A stretch of 64,000 nucleotides of DNA from Fidelibacterota bacterium (GTDB lineage: Bacteria; Fidelibacterota; UBA2242): NCBI GenBank assembly GCA_049975265.1, contig JBNGDF010000009.1, positions 10,295 to 74,294 of the forward strand, given 5' to 3'. This document shows positions 34,266-59,489 of the stretch, piece after piece. A program made the position numbers and the translations under genes. The notes beneath the pieces are model-generated. The model was not told where the DNA came from. It did no database searches and worked only from the letters and a program-made list of their open reading frames with translations. The stretch's first letter is position 1; each line of letters opens with the position of its first letter.

Positions 34266-34855
34266 ATATGTTACCCGCATCTCTGCAGACTTTGATCGAT
34301 CGCCTTTCCCGTTTTCCGGGGGTTGGCAACAAGTCGGCTCAACGGCTCGCTTTTTTTATTCTGAAACATTCAAGGGAGGATGCCGTCGCTCTGGCAAAGG
34401 CGATCATTGACGTGAAAGACCGTATTTCCGAGTGCAGCCAGTGCCACAATATCGCCGAAACAGACCCCTGCCATATCTGCAGTGACCCGAAGCGTGATCG
34501 TAGCACTCTGTGTGTCGTTCAGGATGTCATGGATGTGCTGGCGATTGAAAAGATCAGTCGGTACCGAGGTCTTTATCACGTTCTCGGTGGCGTTCTCTCG
34601 CCGCTGAACGGAATCGGTCCCGAAGATTTGCACATTGACGATCTGATGACCCGCCTGGATAACGTCAAGGAGGTGATATTGGCTATCAATCCAAGCCGTG
34701 ACGGTGAAACCACGTCCCTTTATTTGCAAAAATTGTTGAAGGATAAGGGTGTCCGGATCAGCCGGATTGCACAGGGCTTGCCGATGGGAATCGACCTGGA
34801 ATTTGCCGACGAGCTGACGTTGACAAAGGCGTTGGAGGGCAGAACGTTATTATAA
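34262..34855 (+). CDS. recR: Recombination mediator RecR
   Basis: PGVGNKSAQRLA HhH, C4 zinc finger, YHVLGG toprim domain. Confidence 0.97.
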   Translation: MNMLPASLQTLIDRLSRFPGVGNKSAQRLAFFILKHSREDAVALAKAIIDVKDRISECSQCHNIAETDPCHICSDPKRDRSTLCVVQDVMDVLAIEKISRYRGLYHVLGGVLSPLNGIGPEDLHIDDLMTRLDNVKEVILAINPSRDGETTSLYLQKLLKDKGVRISRIAQGLPMGIDLEFADELTLTKALEGRTLL

Positions 34856-35460
34856 TGAGCAAAAGGGTTTTAACTCGCGCCAATTTTGTGACAACTTCCA
34901 GAATTCTGTTAACACCGCTGTTTCTCTATTTTCTCTTCGGTGGACGGGAATATTTCGAAATCTTTGCGCTGATCATCTTTATTATTGCTTCGGTGACCGA
35001 TGCATACGATGGGTATGTAGCCCGGAAATACCGGGAAGAGACACCACTGGGTAAATTTCTGGATCCCCTGGCGGATAAGGTTCTCATGTCGGCGGCTTTT
35101 ATCTCCTTTGTGATTATGGATTTAATTCCGCTCTGGATGGTCATTCTGGTTATTCTGCGTGATTTTATGGTGACCGGCATTCGGATTATGATGTCCACGC
35201 GGGATAAAATCATGGTTACCCGTAAATCGGCAAAAGCCAAAACCGGTGCTCAGATCGGGGCCGTCTGCTTCATTCTCGTTTATATCATAACCCAGCGCTG
35301 GAAAATATTTTTCGGAATATCGGATTATGTTAAAATATTAGAAGATTATCATGTCATTTATATCCTCATGCTGCTGGTTACGATATTTACCGTATGGACA
35401 GGCATTGAGTATATCATCGTCAATCGACAAGTGTTCAAAGAATATCTGCGAAAGTCTTGA
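34855..35460 (+). CDS. pgsA: CDP-diacylglycerol--glycerol-3-phosphate 3-phosphatidyltransferase
   Basis: TDAYDGYVAR...LGKFLDPLADK CDP-alcohol phosphotransferase motif. Confidence 0.92.
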   Translation: MSKRVLTRANFVTTSRILLTPLFLYFLFGGREYFEIFALIIFIIASVTDAYDGYVARKYREETPLGKFLDPLADKVLMSAAFISFVIMDLIPLWMVILVILRDFMVTGIRIMMSTRDKIMVTRKSAKAKTGAQIGAVCFILVYIITQRWKIFFGISDYVKILEDYHVIYILMLLVTIFTVWTGIEYIIVNRQVFKEYLRKS

Positions 35461-35924
35461 AGAAAATTTCATTAATTAGAACGGCAGCCTCGTTTTTTTA
35501 TGTCGGCTTTTTTCCGGTTGCGCCCGGCACATGGGCAAGTCTGATCGCCATGCTGATCTGGCTGTTGCTGCCGGTTCAGTCCGTTATCATCCGGACCATT
35601 ATCGTCGGTCTGGCATTTGTCACTGGACTCTATGTAGCCAATGCCGCCGAGATACAGGCTGGTGTCGACGATCCGGCGTATGTGGTGATTGACGAGGTAG
35701 CGGGAATGTGGCTGGCGCTGCTGCTGCTGCCGAAATTCGAATATCCGCAATCTTTTTTATGGGCGCTGATCGCTTTTCTGATCTTTCGAATTTTCGATAT
35801 CACCAAAATTTTTCCCATTAACAGGCTGGAAAAGATGAGTGGCGGTTTCGGGATTATGCTGGATGATATTGCCGCCGGTCTCTTTACCGCCGTGCTGCTC
35901 AATCTGATCATCTGGATCGTATAA
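35457..35924 (+). CDS. pgpA: Phosphatidylglycerophosphatase A
   Basis: APGTWAS, VVIDEVAG, FRIFDITK, GIMLDD. Confidence 0.93.
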   Translation: MKKISLIRTAASFFYVGFFPVAPGTWASLIAMLIWLLLPVQSVIIRTIIVGLAFVTGLYVANAAEIQAGVDDPAYVVIDEVAGMWLALLLLPKFEYPQSFLWALIAFLIFRIFDITKIFPINRLEKMSGGFGIMLDDIAAGLFTAVLLNLIIWIV

Positions 35925-49694: not shown

Positions 49695-50041
49695 TAAGAA
49701 GAGTGTTGATAATTCTCATTATCCTGACAATTGGCAGCGCACCGATGTACAGTCAGAGAGGCGAATACGACCTGTGCGATTCCTGGTTTGGCAGGGATAA
49801 ATTAAAGCATTTAAGTAGTTCGTTTGTCCTGACCACAACCGGATACTACATTCAGACGCGGATGGTTGATTTTTCAGAAACGCAGTCACTCGGTCGCGCC
49901 GGTCTGGTTACGGTTTCTCTGGGACTGGGCAAGGAGCTCCGGGATCGGAGAAAACCCAAAGGGCTGTTCAGCTACCGGGACCTTTTGGCAGATGTAGCGG
50001 GTGCCGGTTTGGCAATTCTTTTTATCAAGGTGATTCAATGA
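49691..50041 (+). CDS. YfiM/DUF2279-like small membrane protein
   Basis: DSWFGRDKLKH, GLGKELRD, FSYRDLLAD motifs. Confidence 0.8.
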   Translation: MIRRVLIILIILTIGSAPMYSQRGEYDLCDSWFGRDKLKHLSSSFVLTTTGYYIQTRMVDFSETQSLGRAGLVTVSLGLGKELRDRRKPKGLFSYRDLLADVAGAGLAILFIKVIQ

Positions 50042-51096
50042 GCCGGGAATTTCATGAATACCGCGGTTGCATTCATGTCCACTCGATCTATTCGGACGGG
50101 GGTGGGACCATTCCGGAGATTATCAATGCCGCCCAAGGCGCAAAACTGGATTATTTGATGATCTCGGATCACATGACTCTGCGGGCGCGGGATGAGAATT
50201 ATTTCGGCTGGTACGACAACCTGTTTGTGACGGTAGGATATGAGATTAACGATCAGGATGATCAGCATCACTATTTAGCCTTTGGGCTGGATAAAATGCT
50301 GCCGCCGGAATACACTCACGAGCAATATATCCAGGCGGTCAAAGCAAAAGGTGCCCTCGGCATCGCCGCCCATCCTTTCGAGGAACGTGATATGAGTAAG
50401 TCGGTGGTGGGATTTCCGCCGATTCCCTGGGGTAATCTGGATTACCCGGAAATCGAAGTCATTGAAATTTGGAATATGATGTCACACTGGCTGGAACTGA
50501 CCACCGGCTGGAATAAATACTGGAATGTTCTTCATCCGCGCAGTTTTTCCACCTTTCCTTCACGCCGCCTGCTCAGTTGGTGGGATAAGGCGAATCTGGA
50601 GCGCAAAGTCGTTGGCGTCGGGTCTGTTGACGTGCATGCCATTAAGGTGAAACTGTTGAAAATTTATACGAAAGCCATCTTTGATTACAAAATCATGTTC
50701 AAATCGCTGCGTACGCACCTGCTCTGCGATACTGAATTAAGCAAAGAGGATACTCCTTCCATAACGGAGAAGTCCATTTTTGATGTTATTCAATCCGGGC
50801 GTACGTTCGTATCTAATTTCCGCTGGGGCGACGCCACCGGTTTTCGCTTTTGGGCGGAGGATGGGCGTCAGCATCTGCAGATGGGAGAATCGGGCGTATT
50901 GACCAAGCCGGTTATCCGGGCGGTATTGCCAAAGAAGGGTCACTGTCGTCTGATTCGAAATGGCGAAGTCATCCAGAAAGGTAAAGCAAGGGAAATCGAA
51001 ATCCCGGTGAAACCCGGTATCTACCGCCTGGAGGTATTGAGCGGGAAACGGGGTTGGATTTATTCGAATCATGTCAAAATAATGGAACCAGAGTAA
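50038..51096 (+). CDS. PHP-domain metallohydrolase (CehA/McbA-like)
   Basis: HVHSIYSDG, SDH, AHP, GSVDVH metal motifs. Confidence 0.85.
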   Translation: MSREFHEYRGCIHVHSIYSDGGGTIPEIINAAQGAKLDYLMISDHMTLRARDENYFGWYDNLFVTVGYEINDQDDQHHYLAFGLDKMLPPEYTHEQYIQAVKAKGALGIAAHPFEERDMSKSVVGFPPIPWGNLDYPEIEVIEIWNMMSHWLELTTGWNKYWNVLHPRSFSTFPSRRLLSWWDKANLERKVVGVGSVDVHAIKVKLLKIYTKAIFDYKIMFKSLRTHLLCDTELSKEDTPSITEKSIFDVIQSGRTFVSNFRWGDATGFRFWAEDGRQHLQMGESGVLTKPVIRAVLPKKGHCRLIRNGEVIQKGKAREIEIPVKPGIYRLEVLSGKRGWIYSNHVKIMEPE

Positions 51097-51097
51097 A

Positions 51098-52447
51098 ATG
51101 TGTGGAGTAGTCGGAGTATACGAAAACCGGGAAGCATCGACGCTGGCGTACCTGTGTCTCTATGCCCTGCAGCATAGGGGGCAGGAGGGAGTCGGCATCG
51201 CAACTTATCAGGATTCAAAAGTGTTCATGGCGAAGGGGCGGGGACTGGTCTCGGAAGTATTTTCCAGCCGCAGCAAGCTGGAGAGCCTGTCCGGTAATTT
51301 CGCCGTGGGGCATAATCGCTATTCCACCTGCGGTGAAAAATCCCCGATTAATATCCAGCCGTTGACATTTAATTATAAAGGCAATCAGATCATTATCGCC
51401 CATAACGGCAATCTGGTGAACCTAAATCCGATTCGCAAAGCACTGGAGGGAAAGGGGGCGCTTTTTCAAACCAGTTCCGATACGGAATATATCATACAGC
51501 TTTTTTCCCATTCCAAAGCCCCAACCATCGAGGAAAAGATGCTGGATGCACTCCGGCAGGTGGAAGGGGCATTTTCACTCGTTATCATGTACAATGATAA
51601 AATGATTGTCGCCCGTGACTGGCACGGTTTCCGCCCCATGTGTATCGGTCGGTTAAAAGAAACCGTGATTGCCACTTCCGAAAGTTGTGCCCTCGATCTG
51701 GTGGGTGCCAAATATGAACGCGACGTTATTCCCGGAGAGATGATCGTATTTGACGGAAAAAGTGAGAAAAGCTATACCATTCACGAACCAAAACCGCGTC
51801 ACTGTATTTTTGAATATGTCTATTTTTCCCGTCCGGACAGCCAGATATTCGGCGAATATGTGGATAAAACCCGCCGTAAGATTGGTAAAATACTGGCGAT
51901 GGAAAAACCGGTCGAGAATGCCGATATCGTCATTTCGGTGCCCGATTCCAGTAATACCACGGCGCTTGGCTATGCCCAGCGTTCGTCGGCGCGTTTTGAG
52001 CTGGGACTCATCCGCAATCATTACGTCGGGCGGACCTTTATACATCCGACTCAGGAGATGCGTGATTTCAGTGTAAAAATTAAATTTAATCCCATCGGTG
52101 GTGTTCTGAAGGATAAAAAAGTGGTAATTGTTGACGATTCCATTGTACGCGGAACCACCCTGAAAAAGCTGGTGCGGATGATCAAGGAGACGGAACCGGC
52201 GGAAATTCATATCCGGATCGGGTCTCCGCCAGTCAAATTTCCCTGCTTTTATGGCATGGATTTTCCTTCCAAGGAGGAGCTGATCGCCAATCATAAAAGC
52301 GTGGCGGAAATCCGGGATTATCTTGAAGTGGACAGCCTCGAATACATATCCGTAAAGGGGCTGCTGGAAGCCACTTCGTTGCCCGATGATCACTTCTGCA
52401 CCGCCTGCTTCACGGGAAAATACCTGGACGCCGACCGTAACTATTAA
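51098..52447 (+). CDS. purF: Amidophosphoribosyltransferase
   Basis: MCGVVG N-terminal Cys, LQHRGQE, HNGN, CIFEYVYF, VDDSIVRGTT, CTACF. Confidence 0.97.
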   Translation: MCGVVGVYENREASTLAYLCLYALQHRGQEGVGIATYQDSKVFMAKGRGLVSEVFSSRSKLESLSGNFAVGHNRYSTCGEKSPINIQPLTFNYKGNQIIIAHNGNLVNLNPIRKALEGKGALFQTSSDTEYIIQLFSHSKAPTIEEKMLDALRQVEGAFSLVIMYNDKMIVARDWHGFRPMCIGRLKETVIATSESCALDLVGAKYERDVIPGEMIVFDGKSEKSYTIHEPKPRHCIFEYVYFSRPDSQIFGEYVDKTRRKIGKILAMEKPVENADIVISVPDSSNTTALGYAQRSSARFELGLIRNHYVGRTFIHPTQEMRDFSVKIKFNPIGGVLKDKKVVIVDDSIVRGTTLKKLVRMIKETEPAEIHIRIGSPPVKFPCFYGMDFPSKEELIANHKSVAEIRDYLEVDSLEYISVKGLLEATSLPDDHFCTACFTGKYLDADRNY

Positions 52448-52456
52448 CCGGGAGAC

Positions 52457-53416
52457 ATGATGCTAACAATACCCGAAAAATATCTGAAACCACTGGACTA
52501 TCTCTTTATATTGAGACCGACACTCTTTTTCCCGGTCTGGATCATCACCCTGGCAGGCTATTCAACTCATTTTACCTCCGGAGAGACCATCATCTGGTGG
52601 AACACGGCAATCAACTGGCGACTCTTCTTTAATTTTTGTATACTGACGCTGGTTGCCGGAGCGACGTTTATTTTTAATCAACTGCAGGACACCGAAAGCG
52701 ACAGGGACAATCGGAAGCTGTTTCTTATTTCAGAAGAACATATCCATCCCAGGACCGCCCGTATAATCGGGATTACTCTGGCGGCGATCGGATTGATTGT
52801 ATTTTTAGTACAAAGTTTTCAACTCTTTATAGTGCTGGGTCTGTTTATATTGGTCTGGGGCTATCTGTACAACTATCCGCCCTTTACCTGGAAAGACCGG
52901 GCACTACCGGGGATAGTCGCGAATCTGTTAGGTGGCATGTTGCTGTTTCTGATCGGCTGGCTGATGGCGGGCGATTTTTCGGTAGAGGTTTTTCTATGGA
53001 TGATTCCATATACGTTGGCATGGGGTGCTGTAGCGCTTTTGACGACCATTCCGGATCAGGAGGGTGATGCCAAACACGATAAGAAAACCTTTGCAGTGAA
53101 ATACGGTGAAAAGATAACAATCTGGCTGGCAACCATATGGGTTTTTCTGGCATTTGTCTTGGGAATGATCATTAACGATCCGATTATCACACATCCGACT
53201 CTGCTGGCACTGCCGCTGTTCATCATTACCTGTTTTAATTTAAAAAAGGAGTGGGTGCTGCGGACAATCCGCTTTCCGCTGCTGTTTATCGGTTTGATTC
53301 TCTGCGTCCAGTTCCCCTACTTTTTCATTGCAATTTTAATAAACTATTATCTGGCAAAGATTTACTATGTCAACCGTTTCGAACTGGATTATCCTACATT
53401 CAAAGTGGAGGAGTAG
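52457..53416 (+). CDS. UbiA-superfamily prenyltransferase
   Basis: LRP, NQLQDTESDRDN and DQEGD Asp-rich motifs, YNYPP; multiple TM helices. Confidence 0.88.
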   Translation: MMLTIPEKYLKPLDYLFILRPTLFFPVWIITLAGYSTHFTSGETIIWWNTAINWRLFFNFCILTLVAGATFIFNQLQDTESDRDNRKLFLISEEHIHPRTARIIGITLAAIGLIVFLVQSFQLFIVLGLFILVWGYLYNYPPFTWKDRALPGIVANLLGGMLLFLIGWLMAGDFSVEVFLWMIPYTLAWGAVALLTTIPDQEGDAKHDKKTFAVKYGEKITIWLATIWVFLAFVLGMIINDPIITHPTLLALPLFIITCFNLKKEWVLRTIRFPLLFIGLILCVQFPYFFIAILINYYLAKIYYVNRFELDYPTFKVEE

Positions 53417-53419
53417 GGT

Positions 53420-53623
53420 GTGATTCTTGTCGATGTCAATGTGTGTGATCTATGCGGAACCTGTGTAGCGGTTTGTCCGGTGGACTGTATTGAATTGACG
53501 GAGTTTGATCTGCTGATCGACCATGAAAAATGCATCAATTGTAATGCCTGTGTCAAAATATGTCCATTTGCGGCGTTGCGAAATGCCGATGCAGAGGTAG
53601 TGCCGGATGAAACAACATTATGA
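53420..53623 (+). CDS. 2x[4Fe-4S] ferredoxin
   Basis: CDLCGTCVAVCP and CINCNACVKICP; GGAG RBS before GTG. Confidence 0.93.
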   Translation: MILVDVNVCDLCGTCVAVCPVDCIELTEFDLLIDHEKCINCNACVKICPFAALRNADAEVVPDETTL

Positions 53624-54782
53624 CATTGCCATTGTCGGAGGGGGACCAGCCGGAAGCACCGCTGCCCGGTTTGCCGCCGGTCAGGGTGCGGCGGTGGTTC
53701 TTCTGGAAAAAGACCGGGAGATCGGGGTTCCGGTACGTTGCGCCGAAGGGATCGGCGAAGACACTCTGGCAAAATATGTCGGTATCGATCCCTCCTGGAT
53801 CGTCAGCCGGATAACGGCATTTGGATTTCATTCTCCGTCAGGAATTGAGATTGCGTTTCAATCAACTACCGCACGGGGTTGTATATTAAACCGTCGCCTG
53901 TTTGATCATGCGCTGGCGGAGCTGGCAGCCCAAGCCGGAGCGGAAATTTACACCAAAGCCTATGTCCGTTCCCTGCGAAGACGCGAGCGCAGGTTCGTGC
54001 TGGGTTTACGGCATATCGGTCAGGAACGGGAGATTACGGCGGATATTGTCATCGCCGCTGACGGAATCGAATCCAGGATTGCACATCTTGCCGGAATAAA
54101 AACAAAACTTCCTTTCCGGGATATTGAAGCCTGTGCCCAGATGCAACTGGCAAATATTGATATTCACCCCGAACGTTGCGATTTTTATGTTTCCAACCGG
54201 TGGGCACCGGGCGGGTATGTCTGGGTCTTTCCGAAAGGTGCCCGAACCGCTAATGTCGGACTCGGAATAAACGGAATATATGCCGGTGAAAAACCGGCAC
54301 TGGGTTACCTGCAGGATTTTGTTAAGCAGCATTTTCCGCAGGCAACGATATTGACCACCACCGCTGGAGGTGTCCCGGTTGCCCGGACGCTGGACCCGCT
54401 TGTCAGCGATGGTATTATGGTGATCGGCGATGCGGCGCATCAGGTAAATCCTCTGACCGGTGGCGGTATTTCGGCTGCGTTAGCCGCCGGGAAAATGGCG
54501 GGGCGGGTCGCCGCTGAGGCGGTGAAAGCCGGTGATAATTCCAGCCGCCGTTTGATATCCTATCAGAAAGAGTGGAATAAAAGTTATGGCAAAGAAATTC
54601 GACGCTACTATCGTCTTAAAGAGTGGGTGATGAAACTAACAGACCAGGACTATGAAGATATCGCCGCCGCCCTGGATAGATTGCCACCGGAAGAGATTAC
54701 GCTTACCAGGATTTTCATGCAGGCTGTAAAAAAGAGACCTTCCCTGATTCCCACAGTAGTGAAGATTTTTGCCGGCTTGTAA
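53607..54782 (+). CDS. Geranylgeranyl reductase family flavoprotein (archaeal DGGGPL-reductase-like)
   Basis: VGGGPAG FAD motif, EKDREIGVPVRCAEG, APGGYVWVFPKG, ANVGLG, GDAAHQVNPLTGGGI. Confidence 0.88.
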   Translation: MKQHYDIAIVGGGPAGSTAARFAAGQGAAVVLLEKDREIGVPVRCAEGIGEDTLAKYVGIDPSWIVSRITAFGFHSPSGIEIAFQSTTARGCILNRRLFDHALAELAAQAGAEIYTKAYVRSLRRRERRFVLGLRHIGQEREITADIVIAADGIESRIAHLAGIKTKLPFRDIEACAQMQLANIDIHPERCDFYVSNRWAPGGYVWVFPKGARTANVGLGINGIYAGEKPALGYLQDFVKQHFPQATILTTTAGGVPVARTLDPLVSDGIMVIGDAAHQVNPLTGGGISAALAAGKMAGRVAAEAVKAGDNSSRRLISYQKEWNKSYGKEIRRYYRLKEWVMKLTDQDYEDIAAALDRLPPEEITLTRIFMQAVKKRPSLIPTVVKIFAGL

Positions 54783-54790
54783 CAAGACCG

Positions 54791-57652
54791 ATGACTGAGC
54801 TGTTAAAAGACCTGAATCTGACAAGATTTGTCTCTTTTGATCTTGAAACCACCGGATTGAATCCGGCAGGTGACGCTGTCATCGAATTTGCCGCTGTTCT
54901 TTTCCAAAACGGAAAACCGACCGAAAAACTCACTTTCCTGTGCAATCCCGGTTATGCAATCAATCCTGAAATAGAGGACTTGACCGGTATAACCACCGAT
55001 ATGCTAGCGGGTTGTGAACCTTTTGAGAATCATCTCGGCGATGTTCTGGATTTTCTGGCTGATGCTCCGCTGGTGGGACACAATATCGGCTTCGATCTGG
55101 GTTTTTTAAAACATGCGTGCCGCCGTCGTCGTGAATTCAGACGGCAGCGTTTTGATAATATTATTTACGATACTATGCTGCTGGCTCAGGCGTTTTTCTT
55201 TTATCTGCCCAATCATCGCCTTTCAACCGTCAGCGACTATTGCAGTCTGTTCACCGAAAATGCCCATCGCGCTGCTGCCGATGCCATGAATTCCGGGAGG
55301 ATCTTCTTAAAGCTGATTCCGGAAGTGTTAAAATACAGCCTTGATACACTCCAGCAGATCAACTATATACTCAAGGATACCGATGATCCCAATAAATGGC
55401 TGTATCAAAACGCCGCCAAAAGGATGCTGCTGACGAAAAGTATCGGTGCTGAAAAGAAACCGAAAATTAGCTGGCAAGCTCCTGGTAATATTTATGGTAC
55501 TCCGCTGCGGGAAAATATTACCGGCTCCGCAAAACCTGATCCGACGGAGCTTGATCGTTTTTTTGACCAAGAAGGGCTGCTGTCAAAACAGCTGAGCAGT
55601 TACGAACCGCGGACTCAGCAACACGCTATGGCACAACTGGTTTATGAAGCATTAAGCGGTGGTAAATCGGCGGTGATCGAAGCCGGGACCGGGGTTGGAA
55701 AGACTCTGGCATACCTGATTCCAGCCCTCCTGTGGCAAAAGCACACCTACCCAGACCATTCCCGGATCGTCATCGCCAGCAATACAAAGACCCTTCAGGA
55801 ACAGATTTTTTATAAAGAAATTCCCTTTGTTCATGATAAATTAAATCTGTATTTCAAAGCCGTTTTACTAAAGGGAAGATCCAATTATATCTGTCTGACA
55901 CGCTGGAATCAATTTCTGGCGGATATCGAAACCAAACTGCATATTACCAACCGATCGGCGATTATCCCAATCATCATCTGGTTGATCCATACGAAAACGG
56001 GGGATATTGCCGAAAATAACGGTTTCAGAATCCGGCAAAATCCGCAGATCTGGAGTGAAGTCGTATCGGAACCGGGGTATTGTACAACCAGTGTCTGCCA
56101 GAAATATGACGGCTGTTTTCTCGGTAATATTCGTTTTCAGGCTGGCAGTGCCGATATCGTGGTCGCCAACCATTCATTGTTGCTTTCCGATGCCGCTTCG
56201 GACAATACCGTCTTACCGCACTACGATATTGTAATCATCGATGAAGCTCACAATCTGGAAAAAAATTCCTATAATTATTTTTCGTCACGAATCAACCTGC
56301 AAATGCTGCTTTCCAAATTAAATACTGTCTACAATGCAGCAACCGTCGAAAGAGGCTTGCTGATCGACGCTGCCCAACTGCTTCGCCAGTACCAAAAGAC
56401 CGGGAAACTCGATAACGAAATTCAACGCCTGAAGGAGCATCTGAACGATCTCAACCTCACCGCTGAAATCTTCTACAAAGCGGTCTACCAACACTCCTTG
56501 CCGAAATTGCATAATAACCGGGGCTATTCCCTGAAGCAACGTTACAAACGGTTCCGGGATGAATTTCCATTGATGGAAACCGAGTCAAAGACATTTATCT
56601 ATGAATTGGACACAACTATCACCGCGCTTCGGGAACTGGTCCTGCTGATTGACCAGCTGGTCAGCGATCAACCCGAAGGTTTCGACGAATTGCGTCTGCG
56701 GTACACAAATATCATTGCCGACTTACAGGAGTACCTTGATACCCTGCGGACAATTGAGACAAGCGCCGACGATACCCTGATTTTCTGGTATGAAATAAAA
56801 GTCAACAGCAACGAATACGGCGTTGATTTTGTCTTTACGCCGCTGGATATATCCGGGGCCATCTTTGACAAATTACTGAAGGAAAAAGAGACCACGATCA
56901 TGACTTCGGCGACGATGCGAATTGCCGATTCCTTTGATTATATTCTCGAACGAACCGGAATATCGAAATTGGGGAACAAACAATTGTTCTACGATACGGT
57001 GGGTTCGCCCTTCGATTATGCTCATCAGATGCGGTTTATCACCTATCACCGGGGAACAGGCAGCAGTGAAACAGCGACGCTCTCAAGACTTATCATCGAT
57101 CTGGTTAATCACTTTAACAGAGGCATAATGGCGCTGTTTACATCCTATTCGGCTCTCCAAGAGGTCTACCGAAATATTCGTACCGAATTTCAGAAACTGG
57201 GCATTACCCTTTTGGCGCAGGGGGTCGGCGGCTCTCAGACCACACTTCTGGAACAATTCCGCAAAGAAAAGGCGTCGGTGCTGCTGGGAACCAGTAGTTT
57301 TTGGGAAGGCGTGGATGTCGTTGGAGATTCGCTGGAAATCCTGATCATCAGTAAGTTGCCCTTTCCTGTCCCGTCTGAACCTATCATCGAGGCAAATGTG
57401 GAAAAATTAAGACTGCTGGGCGGCAATCCGTTCAATGAGTACTACGTCCCCGAATCGGTCTTGAAATTTCGCCAGGGCATCGGTCGGTTGATTCGCTCGA
57501 AAACCGACAAAGGCGTTGTTATCAATCTTGATGACCGGATTGATAAAAAGGCTTATGGACAATTCTTTAAACAATCAATTCCGGTTGATGCATTAAGCAT
57601 CACCGATCTGGAATCGCTGAATTGGGAAATCGAGTCATTTTTTAACAGGTAA
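54791..57652 (+). CDS. dinG: DEDDh 3'-5' exonuclease - DinG helicase fusion
   Basis: FDLETTG, GHNIGFD, HRA exonuclease motifs; EAGTGVGKT, DEAH, SAT, FWEGVD, QGIGRLIR; four candidate FeS Cys. Confidence 0.93.
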   Translation: MTELLKDLNLTRFVSFDLETTGLNPAGDAVIEFAAVLFQNGKPTEKLTFLCNPGYAINPEIEDLTGITTDMLAGCEPFENHLGDVLDFLADAPLVGHNIGFDLGFLKHACRRRREFRRQRFDNIIYDTMLLAQAFFFYLPNHRLSTVSDYCSLFTENAHRAAADAMNSGRIFLKLIPEVLKYSLDTLQQINYILKDTDDPNKWLYQNAAKRMLLTKSIGAEKKPKISWQAPGNIYGTPLRENITGSAKPDPTELDRFFDQEGLLSKQLSSYEPRTQQHAMAQLVYEALSGGKSAVIEAGTGVGKTLAYLIPALLWQKHTYPDHSRIVIASNTKTLQEQIFYKEIPFVHDKLNLYFKAVLLKGRSNYICLTRWNQFLADIETKLHITNRSAIIPIIIWLIHTKTGDIAENNGFRIRQNPQIWSEVVSEPGYCTTSVCQKYDGCFLGNIRFQAGSADIVVANHSLLLSDAASDNTVLPHYDIVIIDEAHNLEKNSYNYFSSRINLQMLLSKLNTVYNAATVERGLLIDAAQLLRQYQKTGKLDNEIQRLKEHLNDLNLTAEIFYKAVYQHSLPKLHNNRGYSLKQRYKRFRDEFPLMETESKTFIYELDTTITALRELVLLIDQLVSDQPEGFDELRLRYTNIIADLQEYLDTLRTIETSADDTLIFWYEIKVNSNEYGVDFVFTPLDISGAIFDKLLKEKETTIMTSATMRIADSFDYILERTGISKLGNKQLFYDTVGSPFDYAHQMRFITYHRGTGSSETATLSRLIIDLVNHFNRGIMALFTSYSALQEVYRNIRTEFQKLGITLLAQGVGGSQTTLLEQFRKEKASVLLGTSSFWEGVDVVGDSLEILIISKLPFPVPSEPIIEANVEKLRLLGGNPFNEYYVPESVLKFRQGIGRLIRSKTDKGVVINLDDRIDKKAYGQFFKQSIPVDALSITDLESLNWEIESFFNR

Positions 57653-57658
57653 TTAAGA

Positions 57659-59032
57659 TTGGACACGGAAGATCAGCCGGGCGTTTTCGGGAATTTACCC
57701 ATTACAGGGGATATTCTTGTAACGACAAATGTAACTTCACTCACTCACCTGCAAGTTGCGAAATATTTCCGGTACGCTGGCGAAAATTTTGTGCTATTAC
57801 CCATTAACTCGATATCCGTCAGGCATCTGGGTTATAATCCCTACATTCACGGGATGATACACGTAGCCGGTAATTCTCTATGTGATGCTATCCAATTGGA
57901 CGCCTATGCCGAACAGGTGAGGGATAGCCAGCAGCTGGAACCGATAGTTGATAAATTTGCTCTGGGTAATGAGCAGGATGCAGTAATAGAGAAATATCTC
58001 GTTTTCAGACTTACACCGCTGCGAATTGATGTGATGAAAGGTCCAGACACGGTGAGTAGTGTAACTCTGCCTGCGAATGAACCACCCTTGCTACGCTGTT
58101 TTTTCTTCGGTATTTGGACAAGAATAAAACGCTGGACGGCGATTTTGCGTGCCTCCTTTTTCAGTGCCTCGATCGCACCGGTTTTTGTGGGTGCTGCCGT
58201 CGCTTATAACCGACAATCAGAAATCCATTGGGGACGACTCCTGTTGACACTTCTGGGGGCTGTATCTGTCCATGCCGCCGCAAATGTCATCAACGATTAT
58301 TATGATCATCGTTCCGGAAACGATGCTGGCAACCGCTATCCGACGGCTTTTTCCGGCGGAAGTCGCATGATTCAGGAAAAAATCATAACACCGGCAACCG
58401 GATTTTTTATCGCCCTGTTTCTTTTTGCTGTAACTATGGCAATCGGTCTGTATTTAAACAGTATTACCGCCGGAAATAACATTTTGTACATTGGGATTAT
58501 CGGAATTCTTTTAGCATTTTTCTATTCGGCAGCACCGCTGAAGCTGGCTTACCGCGGAATCGGCGAATTGGCTATTGTCAGCGCCTTCGGACCGATAATT
58601 GTCATGGGAACCTACTATGTTCAGGTGCAATCGCTGGATTTAGTACCTCTGCTGGTTTCCATTCCTGCCGGAGTTCTGGTCGGACTCATTCTGTTCATCA
58701 ACGAATTTCAGGATATGATCGCCGATAAAAAGGTTCAGAAAAATACCCTTGTTGTCAGAGCCAGATCGAAGAAAAGGGCTGTTTATATTTATGGGGGATT
58801 GCTGATTTTCGTCTATTTATGGTTGGCTGGATGTGCGATTTTGGGCATGGTGCCAATCTGGACATTGCTGGTTTTTATCACAATCCCCATGGTTTACCGG
58901 GCGGTTCGGATTGTATCGAACCATTATGATCAGATAGAGGAGTTATTACCAGCCAATGCACTGACAATTGGAATTCACCTGCTGGTTTCACTGTTGGTTG
59001 CCATCGGATTTATCCTGGATGCCATTTGCTGA
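57659..59032 (+). CDS. MenA-like prenyltransferase with about 150-aa N-terminal soluble extension
   Basis: NVINDYYDHRSGND, FSGGSR, YSAAPLKLAYRGIGE, INEFQDMIADKKVQKNTL. Confidence 0.8.
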   Translation: MDTEDQPGVFGNLPITGDILVTTNVTSLTHLQVAKYFRYAGENFVLLPINSISVRHLGYNPYIHGMIHVAGNSLCDAIQLDAYAEQVRDSQQLEPIVDKFALGNEQDAVIEKYLVFRLTPLRIDVMKGPDTVSSVTLPANEPPLLRCFFFGIWTRIKRWTAILRASFFSASIAPVFVGAAVAYNRQSEIHWGRLLLTLLGAVSVHAAANVINDYYDHRSGNDAGNRYPTAFSGGSRMIQEKIITPATGFFIALFLFAVTMAIGLYLNSITAGNNILYIGIIGILLAFFYSAAPLKLAYRGIGELAIVSAFGPIIVMGTYYVQVQSLDLVPLLVSIPAGVLVGLILFINEFQDMIADKKVQKNTLVVRARSKKRAVYIYGGLLIFVYLWLAGCAILGMVPIWTLLVFITIPMVYRAVRIVSNHYDQIEELLPANALTIGIHLLVSLLVAIGFILDAIC

Positions 59033-59096: not shown

Positions 59097-59167
59097 TGGG
59101 GTGTCGTCCAACGGCAGGACACATGACTCTGGATCATGGTATCGGGGTTCGAATCCCTGCACCCCAG
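59097..59167 (+). tRNA. tRNA-Gln (CTG)
   Basis: tggggtg/cacccca acceptor; anticodon arm catga-ctctgga-tcatg; GTTCGAATC T loop. Confidence 0.96.
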
Positions 59168-59219
59168 CACCAAGGCAGGGGTTGTCTGTTATTTCAAAAT
59201 TGACTTTGTAGCGGATTAC

Positions 59220-59408: not shown

Positions 59409-59480
59409 GGCGCATTCGTCTAGCGGTTAGGACGCCGGCCTCTCACGCCGGTAGCAGGGGTTCGATTCCCCTATGCGCTA
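59409..59480 (+). tRNA. tRNA-Glu (CTC)
   Basis: ggcgcat/atgcgct acceptor; anticodon arm ccggc-ctctcac-gccgg; GTTCGATTC T loop. Confidence 0.96.
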
Positions 59481-59489
59481 CAAAATAAA

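Follow-up and report, generated by a model that had tools for sequence, protein, structure and literature searches.

Genes for archaeal-type ether lipids are already known from bacteria of the Fibrobacteres-Chlorobi-Bacteroidetes (FCB) group, and the idea that these bacteria make such lipids has been published (PMC7852524, PMC6431249; citations here and below refer to the passages on these genes and enzymes). In a survey of 12 FCB phyla that lists Marinimicrobia, every phylum has geranylgeranylglyceryl phosphate (GGGP) synthase (GGGPS) and digeranylgeranylglyceryl phosphate (DGGGP) synthase (DGGGPS) (Coleman et al., PMC6431249), and the two Cloacimonetes enzymes yield unsaturated archaeol with a phosphatidylglycerol head group (PG-archaeol) in E. 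coli (Villanueva et al., PMC7852524). In Euryarchaeota, geranylgeranyl reductase (GGR) genes are syntenic with ferredoxin genes, and ferredoxin activates GGR in E. coli (PMC9385802). The archaeal digeranylgeranylglycerophospholipid (DGGGPL) reductase is defined by a PxxYxWxFP cavity motif, RxxFD, GxGxxG, and an active-site Cys (PMC10821996). Here we describe a three-gene locus, ubiA3-fd-ggr, from a Fidelibacterota bacterium (assembly GCA_049975265.1, contig JBNGDF010000009.1, positions 10,295 to 74,294; this whole stretch of 64,000 nucleotides is called the window). The locus encodes a UbiA-family prenyltransferase (UbiA3), a ferredoxin (fd), and a flavoprotein reductase (ggr).

Published work on FCB bacteria ended, in the passages cited, at unsaturated archaeol in E. 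coli, and a natural mixed archaeal/bacterial membrane in any bacterium is an open question. The locus supplies a reductase and its probable electron donor. A first-pass annotation read the three genes as one unit that prenylates an acceptor and then saturates it. On balance, we favor a different arrangement, in which fd and ggr would carry out saturation in an archaeol-type pathway with its ether-forming genes elsewhere in the genome, and the adjacent UbiA3 would be a separate, uncharacterised prenyltransferase. The saturated prenyl lipid of the annotation is retained as an archaeol-type product, which is likely given the reductase type and its ferredoxin, the GGGPS and DGGGPS-like genes elsewhere, and the conserved gene order. 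Its origin from the triad as one unit is not, because UbiA3 scores far below another protein of the genome on the DGGGPS model (41 versus 198 bits) and the genes are lost separately.

Reductase and ferredoxin

The class of the reductase was assigned from profile scores, PDB match, and motifs. Its top NCBIfam model was the Thermoplasmatales DGGGPL reductase (NF041160, 228 bits), and it passed the geranylgeranyl reductase family model TIGR02032 (227.6 bits versus a cut-off of 158.8). The closest PDB entry was the DGGGPL reductase (DGGR) of Thermoplasma acidophilum (3oz2, E 1.5e-64), with which the motifs EKDREIGVPVRCAEG and PGGYVWVFPKG, correctly picked out by the first-pass annotation, align. 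All motifs of the archaeal enzyme are present, namely GxGxxG at residue 11, the Cys of CAEG at 45, RxxFD at 96, and PxxYxWxFP at 201, with NPLTGGG at 281. Among full-length reductase homologues from genome loci, PxxYxWxFP occurs in 64/64 and the Cys loop in 63/64. Wherever the best 120 of 3214 homologues carry a name, they are bacterial; most come from Marinimicrobia, KSB1, and Calditrichota, and one is labelled Actinobacteria.

No other family model was passed (BchP, 141 bits versus a cut-off of 343; MenJ, 61 versus 700; FixC, 52 versus 610), so a MenJ- or FixC-type reductase was not seen by profile. These scores, set against 228 bits for the DGGGPL reductase model, and the conservation of PxxYxWxFP argue against a reductase that acts on a quinone side chain, a polyprenol, or free geranylgeranyl diphosphate (GGPP), as MenJ, AF-PR, or HepR do, rather than on a membrane diether. 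A MenA-like gene two genes downstream fits such a role, as does the range of prenyl substrates that GGR enzymes accept (PMC9385802, PMC10821996). However, neither MenB nor MqnC was found in this genome, or in two reductase-bearing genomes of genus g20 (see below), and we consider the quinone or polyprenol role quite unlikely.

The ferredoxin has one CxxCxxCxxxCP motif at residue 9 and another at residue 38; such two-cluster motifs are present in all 71 homologous ferredoxin open reading frames (ORFs) of the loci. Both fd and ggr are missing together in 8/8 loci without ggr and are retained together in 7/7 loci without ubiA3. We infer that the ferredoxin is the electron donor of the reductase, and the archaeal-type reductase with an adjacent ferredoxin proposed by the first-pass annotation is upheld. 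As a separate observation, in families f15 and f19 (L211, L353, L357, L361, L368) the fd-ggr slot has no ferredoxin and instead encodes a flavoprotein more distantly related within the GGR family. A tblastn search of plasmids matched neither UbiA3 nor the reductase.

Predicted ether-lipid genes elsewhere in the genome

Homologue labels assign the organism to Marinimicrobia/Fidelibacterota. The genome, which is 95% complete, contains a single GGGPS gene on contig C11 (TIGR01769, 212 bits versus a cut-off of 161.55), so the absence of this enzyme noted at first pass holds for the window but not for the genome. A DGGGPS-like UbiA gene lies on contig C31, with NF009521 as its best match (198 bits). 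GGGPS and a DGGGPS-like gene in one genome is the pairing by which the archaeal-type ether-lipid gene set of FCB bacteria is recognized, and it is found here. The genome has three UbiA proteins, the DGGGPS-like protein, a MenA-like protein, and UbiA3, and also encodes two polyprenyl synthases, PlsY, GpsA, CdsA, PgsA, and PgpA. As annotated at first pass, dxs, ispH, pgsA, and pgpA are all inside the window.

Together, these genes suggest a route in which GGPP derived from the methylerythritol phosphate (MEP) pathway and glycerol phosphate would be joined to GGGP by the GGGPS on C11, which the C31 UbiA protein would convert to DGGGP. CdsA, PgsA, and PgpA would take the place of CarS and of the head-group enzymes of archaea, with PgsA and PgpA as candidate promiscuous head-group enzymes for archaeol. 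The ferredoxin would pass electrons to the reductase flavin, and the reductase would saturate the geranylgeranyl chains to phytanyl chains, giving an archaeol-type diether alongside ordinary acyl-ester lipids. We also count in favor of the archaeol-type pathway that a CDP-alcohol transferase gene comes next after the triad, or directly after UbiA3, in many loci of KSB1-like genomes and in a third phylum.

An AraM-like gene, a relative of sn-glycerol-1-phosphate (G1P) dehydrogenase (G1PDH), scored 171 bits versus a cut-off of 413 and lies within a catabolic-looking cluster (glpQ-like, araM-like, HAD-IIA, glpT/uhpC-like, rpiB-like; L023:7795-12836, G000:C5) that resembles one for glycerophosphodiester or G1P catabolism.

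That cluster can be cited for salvage or remodelling of archaeal lipids from neighbours, which, taken together with the option that UbiA3 acts as an additional DGGGP synthase of divergent sequence, we regard as very unlikely. Catabolic use of FCB GGGPS and DGGGPS has been raised before (PMC6431249), and g20 genomes without GGGPS and, in the two tested, without GpsA have a cluster of fatty-acid kinase and second PlsY genes. However, when expressed in E. coli the Cloacimonetes orthologues function in biosynthesis (PMC7852524), and the araM-like cluster is patchy, present in 12/161 genomes of the phylum.

Co-occurrence and separate losses

We surveyed 161 genomes of the phylum with completeness of at least 85%. 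GGGPS was present in 124 (123 over the cut-off), a DGGGPS-like gene in 136, and the reductase in 114, after six matches at 141–152 bits were excluded from 120 as another family. For UbiA3, the detection limit was E 1e-12, and nine low profile matches at other loci were excluded, as we took them to be DGGGPS cross-matches. The reductase closely followed DGGGPS, which occurred in 112/114 reductase genomes; the reductase was missing from 23/25 genomes without DGGGPS and also from 24 with it. Across the same 114 genomes, UbiA3 was high-scoring in 49 (not seen to lack motifs, not all being checked individually), motif-less or strongly diverged in 24, and not detected in 41. A second sample of 50 UbiA3-bearing genomes, chosen from 80 genome loci, contained GGGPS in 48, DGGGPS in 48, and the reductase in 43, and all seven without reductase retain both GGGPS and DGGGPS. 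We note that these counts represent few events, the genomes being incomplete and related to one another, and we claim no statistical test. The distribution of the reductase follows that of DGGGP synthase, not that of the neighbouring UbiA3, and the three genes, being lost separately, do not make up an obligate unit.

Genus g20 has DGGGPS and the reductase in 11/11 genomes. Three of them, with no Pfam PcrB, have the DGGGPS-like protein as their single UbiA and keep fd-ggr in place, which speaks against a quinone or polyprenol substrate, although reductase without GGGPS in this genus is a point for it. The reductase was not found in lineages without DGGGPS, and the two DGGGPS-less, reductase-less genomes tested still hold two polyprenyl synthases, which again does not fit that substrate. 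In the same genus (L195-L197, L410-L412), GpsA was not found in two genomes tested, and a second PlsY gene lies beside FakA-like and DegV genes, forming a fatty-acid-kinase plus PlsY cluster; this gene set possibly reflects lipid salvage or hybrid ester/ether lipids.

Gene order across genomes

The three ORFs lie as first annotated, with a 3-nt gap between ubiA3 and fd and a 17-nt overlap between fd and ggr. Their description as tightly coupled is accurate for spacing but not as a trait of the triad, because the flanking junctions are just as tight (purF-ubiA3, 9 nt; ggr-dinG, 8 nt; dinG-menA, 6 nt), and spacing alone does not mark out the three genes. The triad sits inside a tightly packed housekeeping gene block.

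Conservation was assessed in 80 of 113 confirmed genome loci, 78 of them long enough to be informative for ggr, and in 80 of 110 metagenome loci, of which 11 were too short for the ggr count. Downstream of ubiA3, ggr occurred within 1.2 kb in 70/78 genome loci, bearing out the synteny of ubiA, fd, and ggr, in 59/69 metagenome loci, and in 21/28 loci of the KSB1-containing phylum, and it was also downstream in 16/28 loci of a third phylum. Upstream, purF occurred in 68/77, 62/72, and 30/30 genome, metagenome, and KSB1-containing-phylum loci, respectively. The block order was ridA-DUF5683-transporter-purF-ubiA3-fd-ggr; next comes dinG in Marinimicrobia, while KSB1-like genomes have a CDP-alcohol transferase gene (many loci), ftsY, and rimO at this place. 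In 7/28 third-phylum loci, the CDP-alcohol transferase gene came directly after ubiA3. Neither GGGPS nor DGGGPS was found within the fetched flanks of the 80 genome loci.

The linkage of ggr to ubiA3 at these four frequencies speaks for a dedicated unit, in which UbiA3 prenylates a novel acceptor and the ferredoxin and reductase mainly saturate its product; in addition, of 52 genomes in which UbiA3 scores high and was not observed to be motif-less, 49 have the reductase. However, purF is linked equally often, and branch-rate covariation over 52 loci gave no specific UbiA3-GGR signal (rho 0.36, no higher than the 0.48 and 0.52 obtained with PurF). In addition, UbiA3 is undetected (41), or motif-less or strongly diverged (24), in 65/114 reductase genomes, and seven genomes hold UbiA3, GGGPS, and DGGGPS but no reductase. 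We therefore think a dedicated unit improbable.

Several observations also weigh against an archaeol-type pathway with fd and ggr as its saturation step. The C31 gene falls under the NF009521 cut-off of 296, CarS was not found in the genome, G1PDH-like (araM-like) genes occur in just 12/161 genomes of the phylum, and an isolate description gives, in the passages cited, fatty acids only (PMC11652737). The reductase does not reach the NF041160 equivalog cut-off of 780, as do none of the control archaea, and the substrate promiscuity of GGR enzymes noted above weakens any inference from enzyme class. GGGPS was present in 0/11 g20 genomes. The genomes without DGGGPS, 13 of which are ~1 Mb in size, belong to a small number of related lineages, so the correlation between reductase and DGGGPS rests on few events. 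Finally, ubiA3-fd-ggr adjacency is kept in three phyla and may mark an ancestral functional link.

UbiA3 and its motif-less forms

The first Asp motif of UbiA3 is NQLQDTESDRDN, followed by RKLFL, and the first-pass annotation was right that the RP is lacking. UbiA3 retains R20, N74, D78, D82, Y138, K146, D200, and D204, and each AfUbiA-type Mg/diphosphate residue is kept in 74–75 of 75 aligned members. Because equivalents of all AfUbiA binding residues are kept, the absence of RP does not indicate an inactive enzyme, and the UbiA3 of the window is predicted to be catalytically equipped, with an intact active site. The AlphaFold model (predicted local distance difference test score, 94.7) has a UbiA fold, with AfUbiA as its top structural match (Z 23.8, root-mean-square deviation 3.2, 265 aligned), and the protein ends in a conserved YYxxRFxLxYP tail.

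Profile comparison against the PDB ranked AfUbiA (53 bits), MjDGGGPS (49), and ChlG (44) too closely for an acceptor to be assigned. UbiA3 was below the cut-offs of the MenA, UbiA, ChlG, HPT, CyoE, EboC, PRK12875, and decaprenylphosphoryl-5-phosphoribose (DPPR) synthase models, with a maximum of 58.5 bits. PRK12875, a lead to lycopene elongase, matched 46/75 UbiA3 members (best E 3e-19) but not the UbiA3 of the window, and kinship with DPPR synthase was rejected because the match was weak (35 bits). A role as DGGGPS was likewise rejected, as UbiA3 and the C31 protein differ in score and motifs and co-occur. The second-best rank of MjDGGGPS, 49 versus 53 bits, is what favors a second, divergent DGGGP synthase, and a canonical DGGGPS-like gene alongside UbiA3 in 48/50 genomes is what opposes it.

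UbiA3 is an uncharacterised subfamily with AfUbiA as its nearest relative among solved structures. It comprises 398 clusters at 50% identity (E up to 1e-30) and occurs in 61/61 genomes of the KSB1-containing phylum and 27/41 of the third phylum; distant members named among 20 of 150 matches are from WOR-3, Stahlbacteria, Latescibacteria, and Poribacteria. A literature search, with most subscription journals outside its coverage, returned nothing on the subfamily or its motif-less forms.

New here are a UbiA3 that is motif-less yet conserved, in 42 examined genomes, and a genus (g20) with DGGGPS and reductase but no GGGPS. The Asp-rich motifs are gone from 42 syntenic UbiA3 orthologues of this phylum, and 27 of these form one clade in which all have an internal deletion of ~40–55 residues. 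Motif loss required four changes on a quick tree (76 rows), at least three of them forced by well-supported branches. The ratio of nonsynonymous to synonymous substitution rates (dN/dS) was 0.08–0.22 in the 9/13 motif-less pairs with unsaturated dS, the other four being saturated, and as judged from these sequences the motif-less forms are under purifying selection. Their conserved columns have shifted to transmembrane helix 1 (TM1), TM8-9, and the C-terminal tail. Since TM9 forms a wall of the AfUbiA prenyl tunnel, a lipid-binding role may be retained. Nine genomes keep a motif-less UbiA3 without GGGPS, DGGGPS, or reductase, and its role therefore does not need archaeol synthesis. Five motif-less proteins had no Pfam match over the cut-off, and one, labelled ‘hypothetical’ by the ESM Atlas, nevertheless aligns to the family with probability 98.5. 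Motif-less, partly truncated orthologues occur at loci L202-L214 and L341-L373.

We suggest, tentatively and with some doubt, that UbiA3 could be an O-prenyltransferase accessory to the same family of lipids, placing an isoprenoid on a hydroxyl of the head group. TM1, TM8-9, and the C-terminal tail would support a second membrane role that does not depend on catalysis. A broader scenario, which we hold to be unlikely, is that deep-branching FCB phyla make a saturated archaeal-type lipid to which UbiA3, a core gene product in the phylum where 61/61 genomes have it, adds a third isoprenoid, on archaeol or its head group, in a prenylation not described before, with a repeated turn to a non-catalytic lipid-handling pseudoenzyme in Marinimicrobia. 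If true, both saturated archaeol and a new class of ether lipids would have a genuine bacterial source in marine and subsurface environments.

Neighbouring genes

Features of the locus and its surroundings are given in Table 1. Two observations concern UbiA or lipid genes beyond the triad. The MenA-like protein has ~150 extra N-terminal residues, its first 154 residues being without a Pfam match, and may prenylate a scavenged naphthoquinone, given that MenB and MqnC were not found. Elsewhere in the genome (G000:C6:50521-52020, minus strand), one 500-aa frame fuses a CDP-alcohol phosphatidyltransferase with FtsY and is followed by rimO, the gene set found after ggr in KSB1-like genomes. The idea that purF is a pathway-specific second copy, linked to phosphoribosyl pyrophosphate (PRPP) chemistry as in DPPR synthase, was ruled out by its copy number. 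A scan for promoters and terminators was uninformative (33 and 25 sites versus 24.4 and 19.8 in shuffles).

Table 1. Coordinates of the triad and other features in the window.
Feature	Position	Strand	Evidence or context
UbiA3, orphan UbiA-family membrane prenyltransferase, 319 aa	52457..53416	+	PF01040, 95.8 bits
fd, 2x[4Fe-4S] ferredoxin, 67 aa, GTG start	53420..53623	+	Fer4 families, two motifs
ggr, Thermoplasma-type geranylgeranyl (DGGGPL) reductase, flavoprotein, 391 aa	53607..54782	+	Profiles, motifs, 3oz2
purF, conserved upstream neighbour of ubiA3	51098..52447	+	Sole copy in genome
Exonuclease-DinG helicase, downstream neighbour in Marinimicrobia	54791..57652	+	
MenA-like UbiA protein, second UbiA of block	57659..59032	+	TIGR00751, 125 bits versus cut-off 102
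pgsA and pgpA	34855..35924	+	TIGR00560 over cut-off; NF008288 below cut-off
PHP-domain phosphoesterase, upstream of purF	50038-51096		Order conserved
tRNA-Gln	59097-59168		End of long plus-strand gene block
tRNA-Glu	59409-59481		End of long plus-strand gene block

Comparison with known systems

With the reductase and its donor named, and the reductase tracking DGGGPS across the phylum, the saturation step becomes directly testable. If the archaeol-type pathway is real, saturated archaeol would not be a strictly archaeal biomarker. The conserved motif-less forms of UbiA3 suggest that the UbiA fold also has a function other than catalysis.

The euryarchaeal DGGGPL reductases with a ferredoxin (T. 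acidophilum 3oz2; Methanosarcina acetivorans, via PMC9385802 and PMC10821996) share with this locus the neighbouring 2x[4Fe-4S] ferredoxin. The reductase of the window resembles the T. acidophilum enzyme, its best profile and PDB match, in its length class, without the Sulfolobus C-terminal extension, and in GxGxxG, the Cys of the CxEG loop, RxxFD, and PxxYxWxFP. By sequence, the level at which they were compared, it differs in its bacterial host, VIGD instead of LxGD, and a score far below the NF041160 cut-off.

UbiA3 shares with the DGGGP synthase of Methanocaldococcus jannaschii (PDB 6m31/7bpu) the UbiA fold (Z 20.5) and both Asp-rich regions, but differs in its low NF009521 score (41 bits versus a cut-off of 296) and in the missing RP after motif 1. 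It also lacks the REIVKD-type second motif of the C31 protein, to which it is 17% identical. The closer likeness is to AfUbiA (PDB 4TQ3-4TQ6; PMC4106721), with equivalents of R22, N68, D72, Y139, K146, D198, and D202; AfUbiA is also without RP after motif 1 and, in the cited passages, has no demonstrated activity of its own (PMC4106721). Identity between the two is ~18%, and UbiA3 alone has an invariant NQ and the YYxxRFxLxYP tail.

The gene set of Ca. Cloacimonetes (PMC7852524, PMC6431249), described in the cited passages with no mention of a ferredoxin partner or a third UbiA, differs from that of the present genome, where GGGPS and DGGGPS are on different contigs and an AraM-like gene is present. 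In other respects, the two sets are alike: both have no CarS, and both combine GGGPS, DGGGPS, and a euryarchaeal-like GGR with the MEP pathway, two polyprenyl synthases, CdsA/PgsA/PgpA, and ester-lipid genes.

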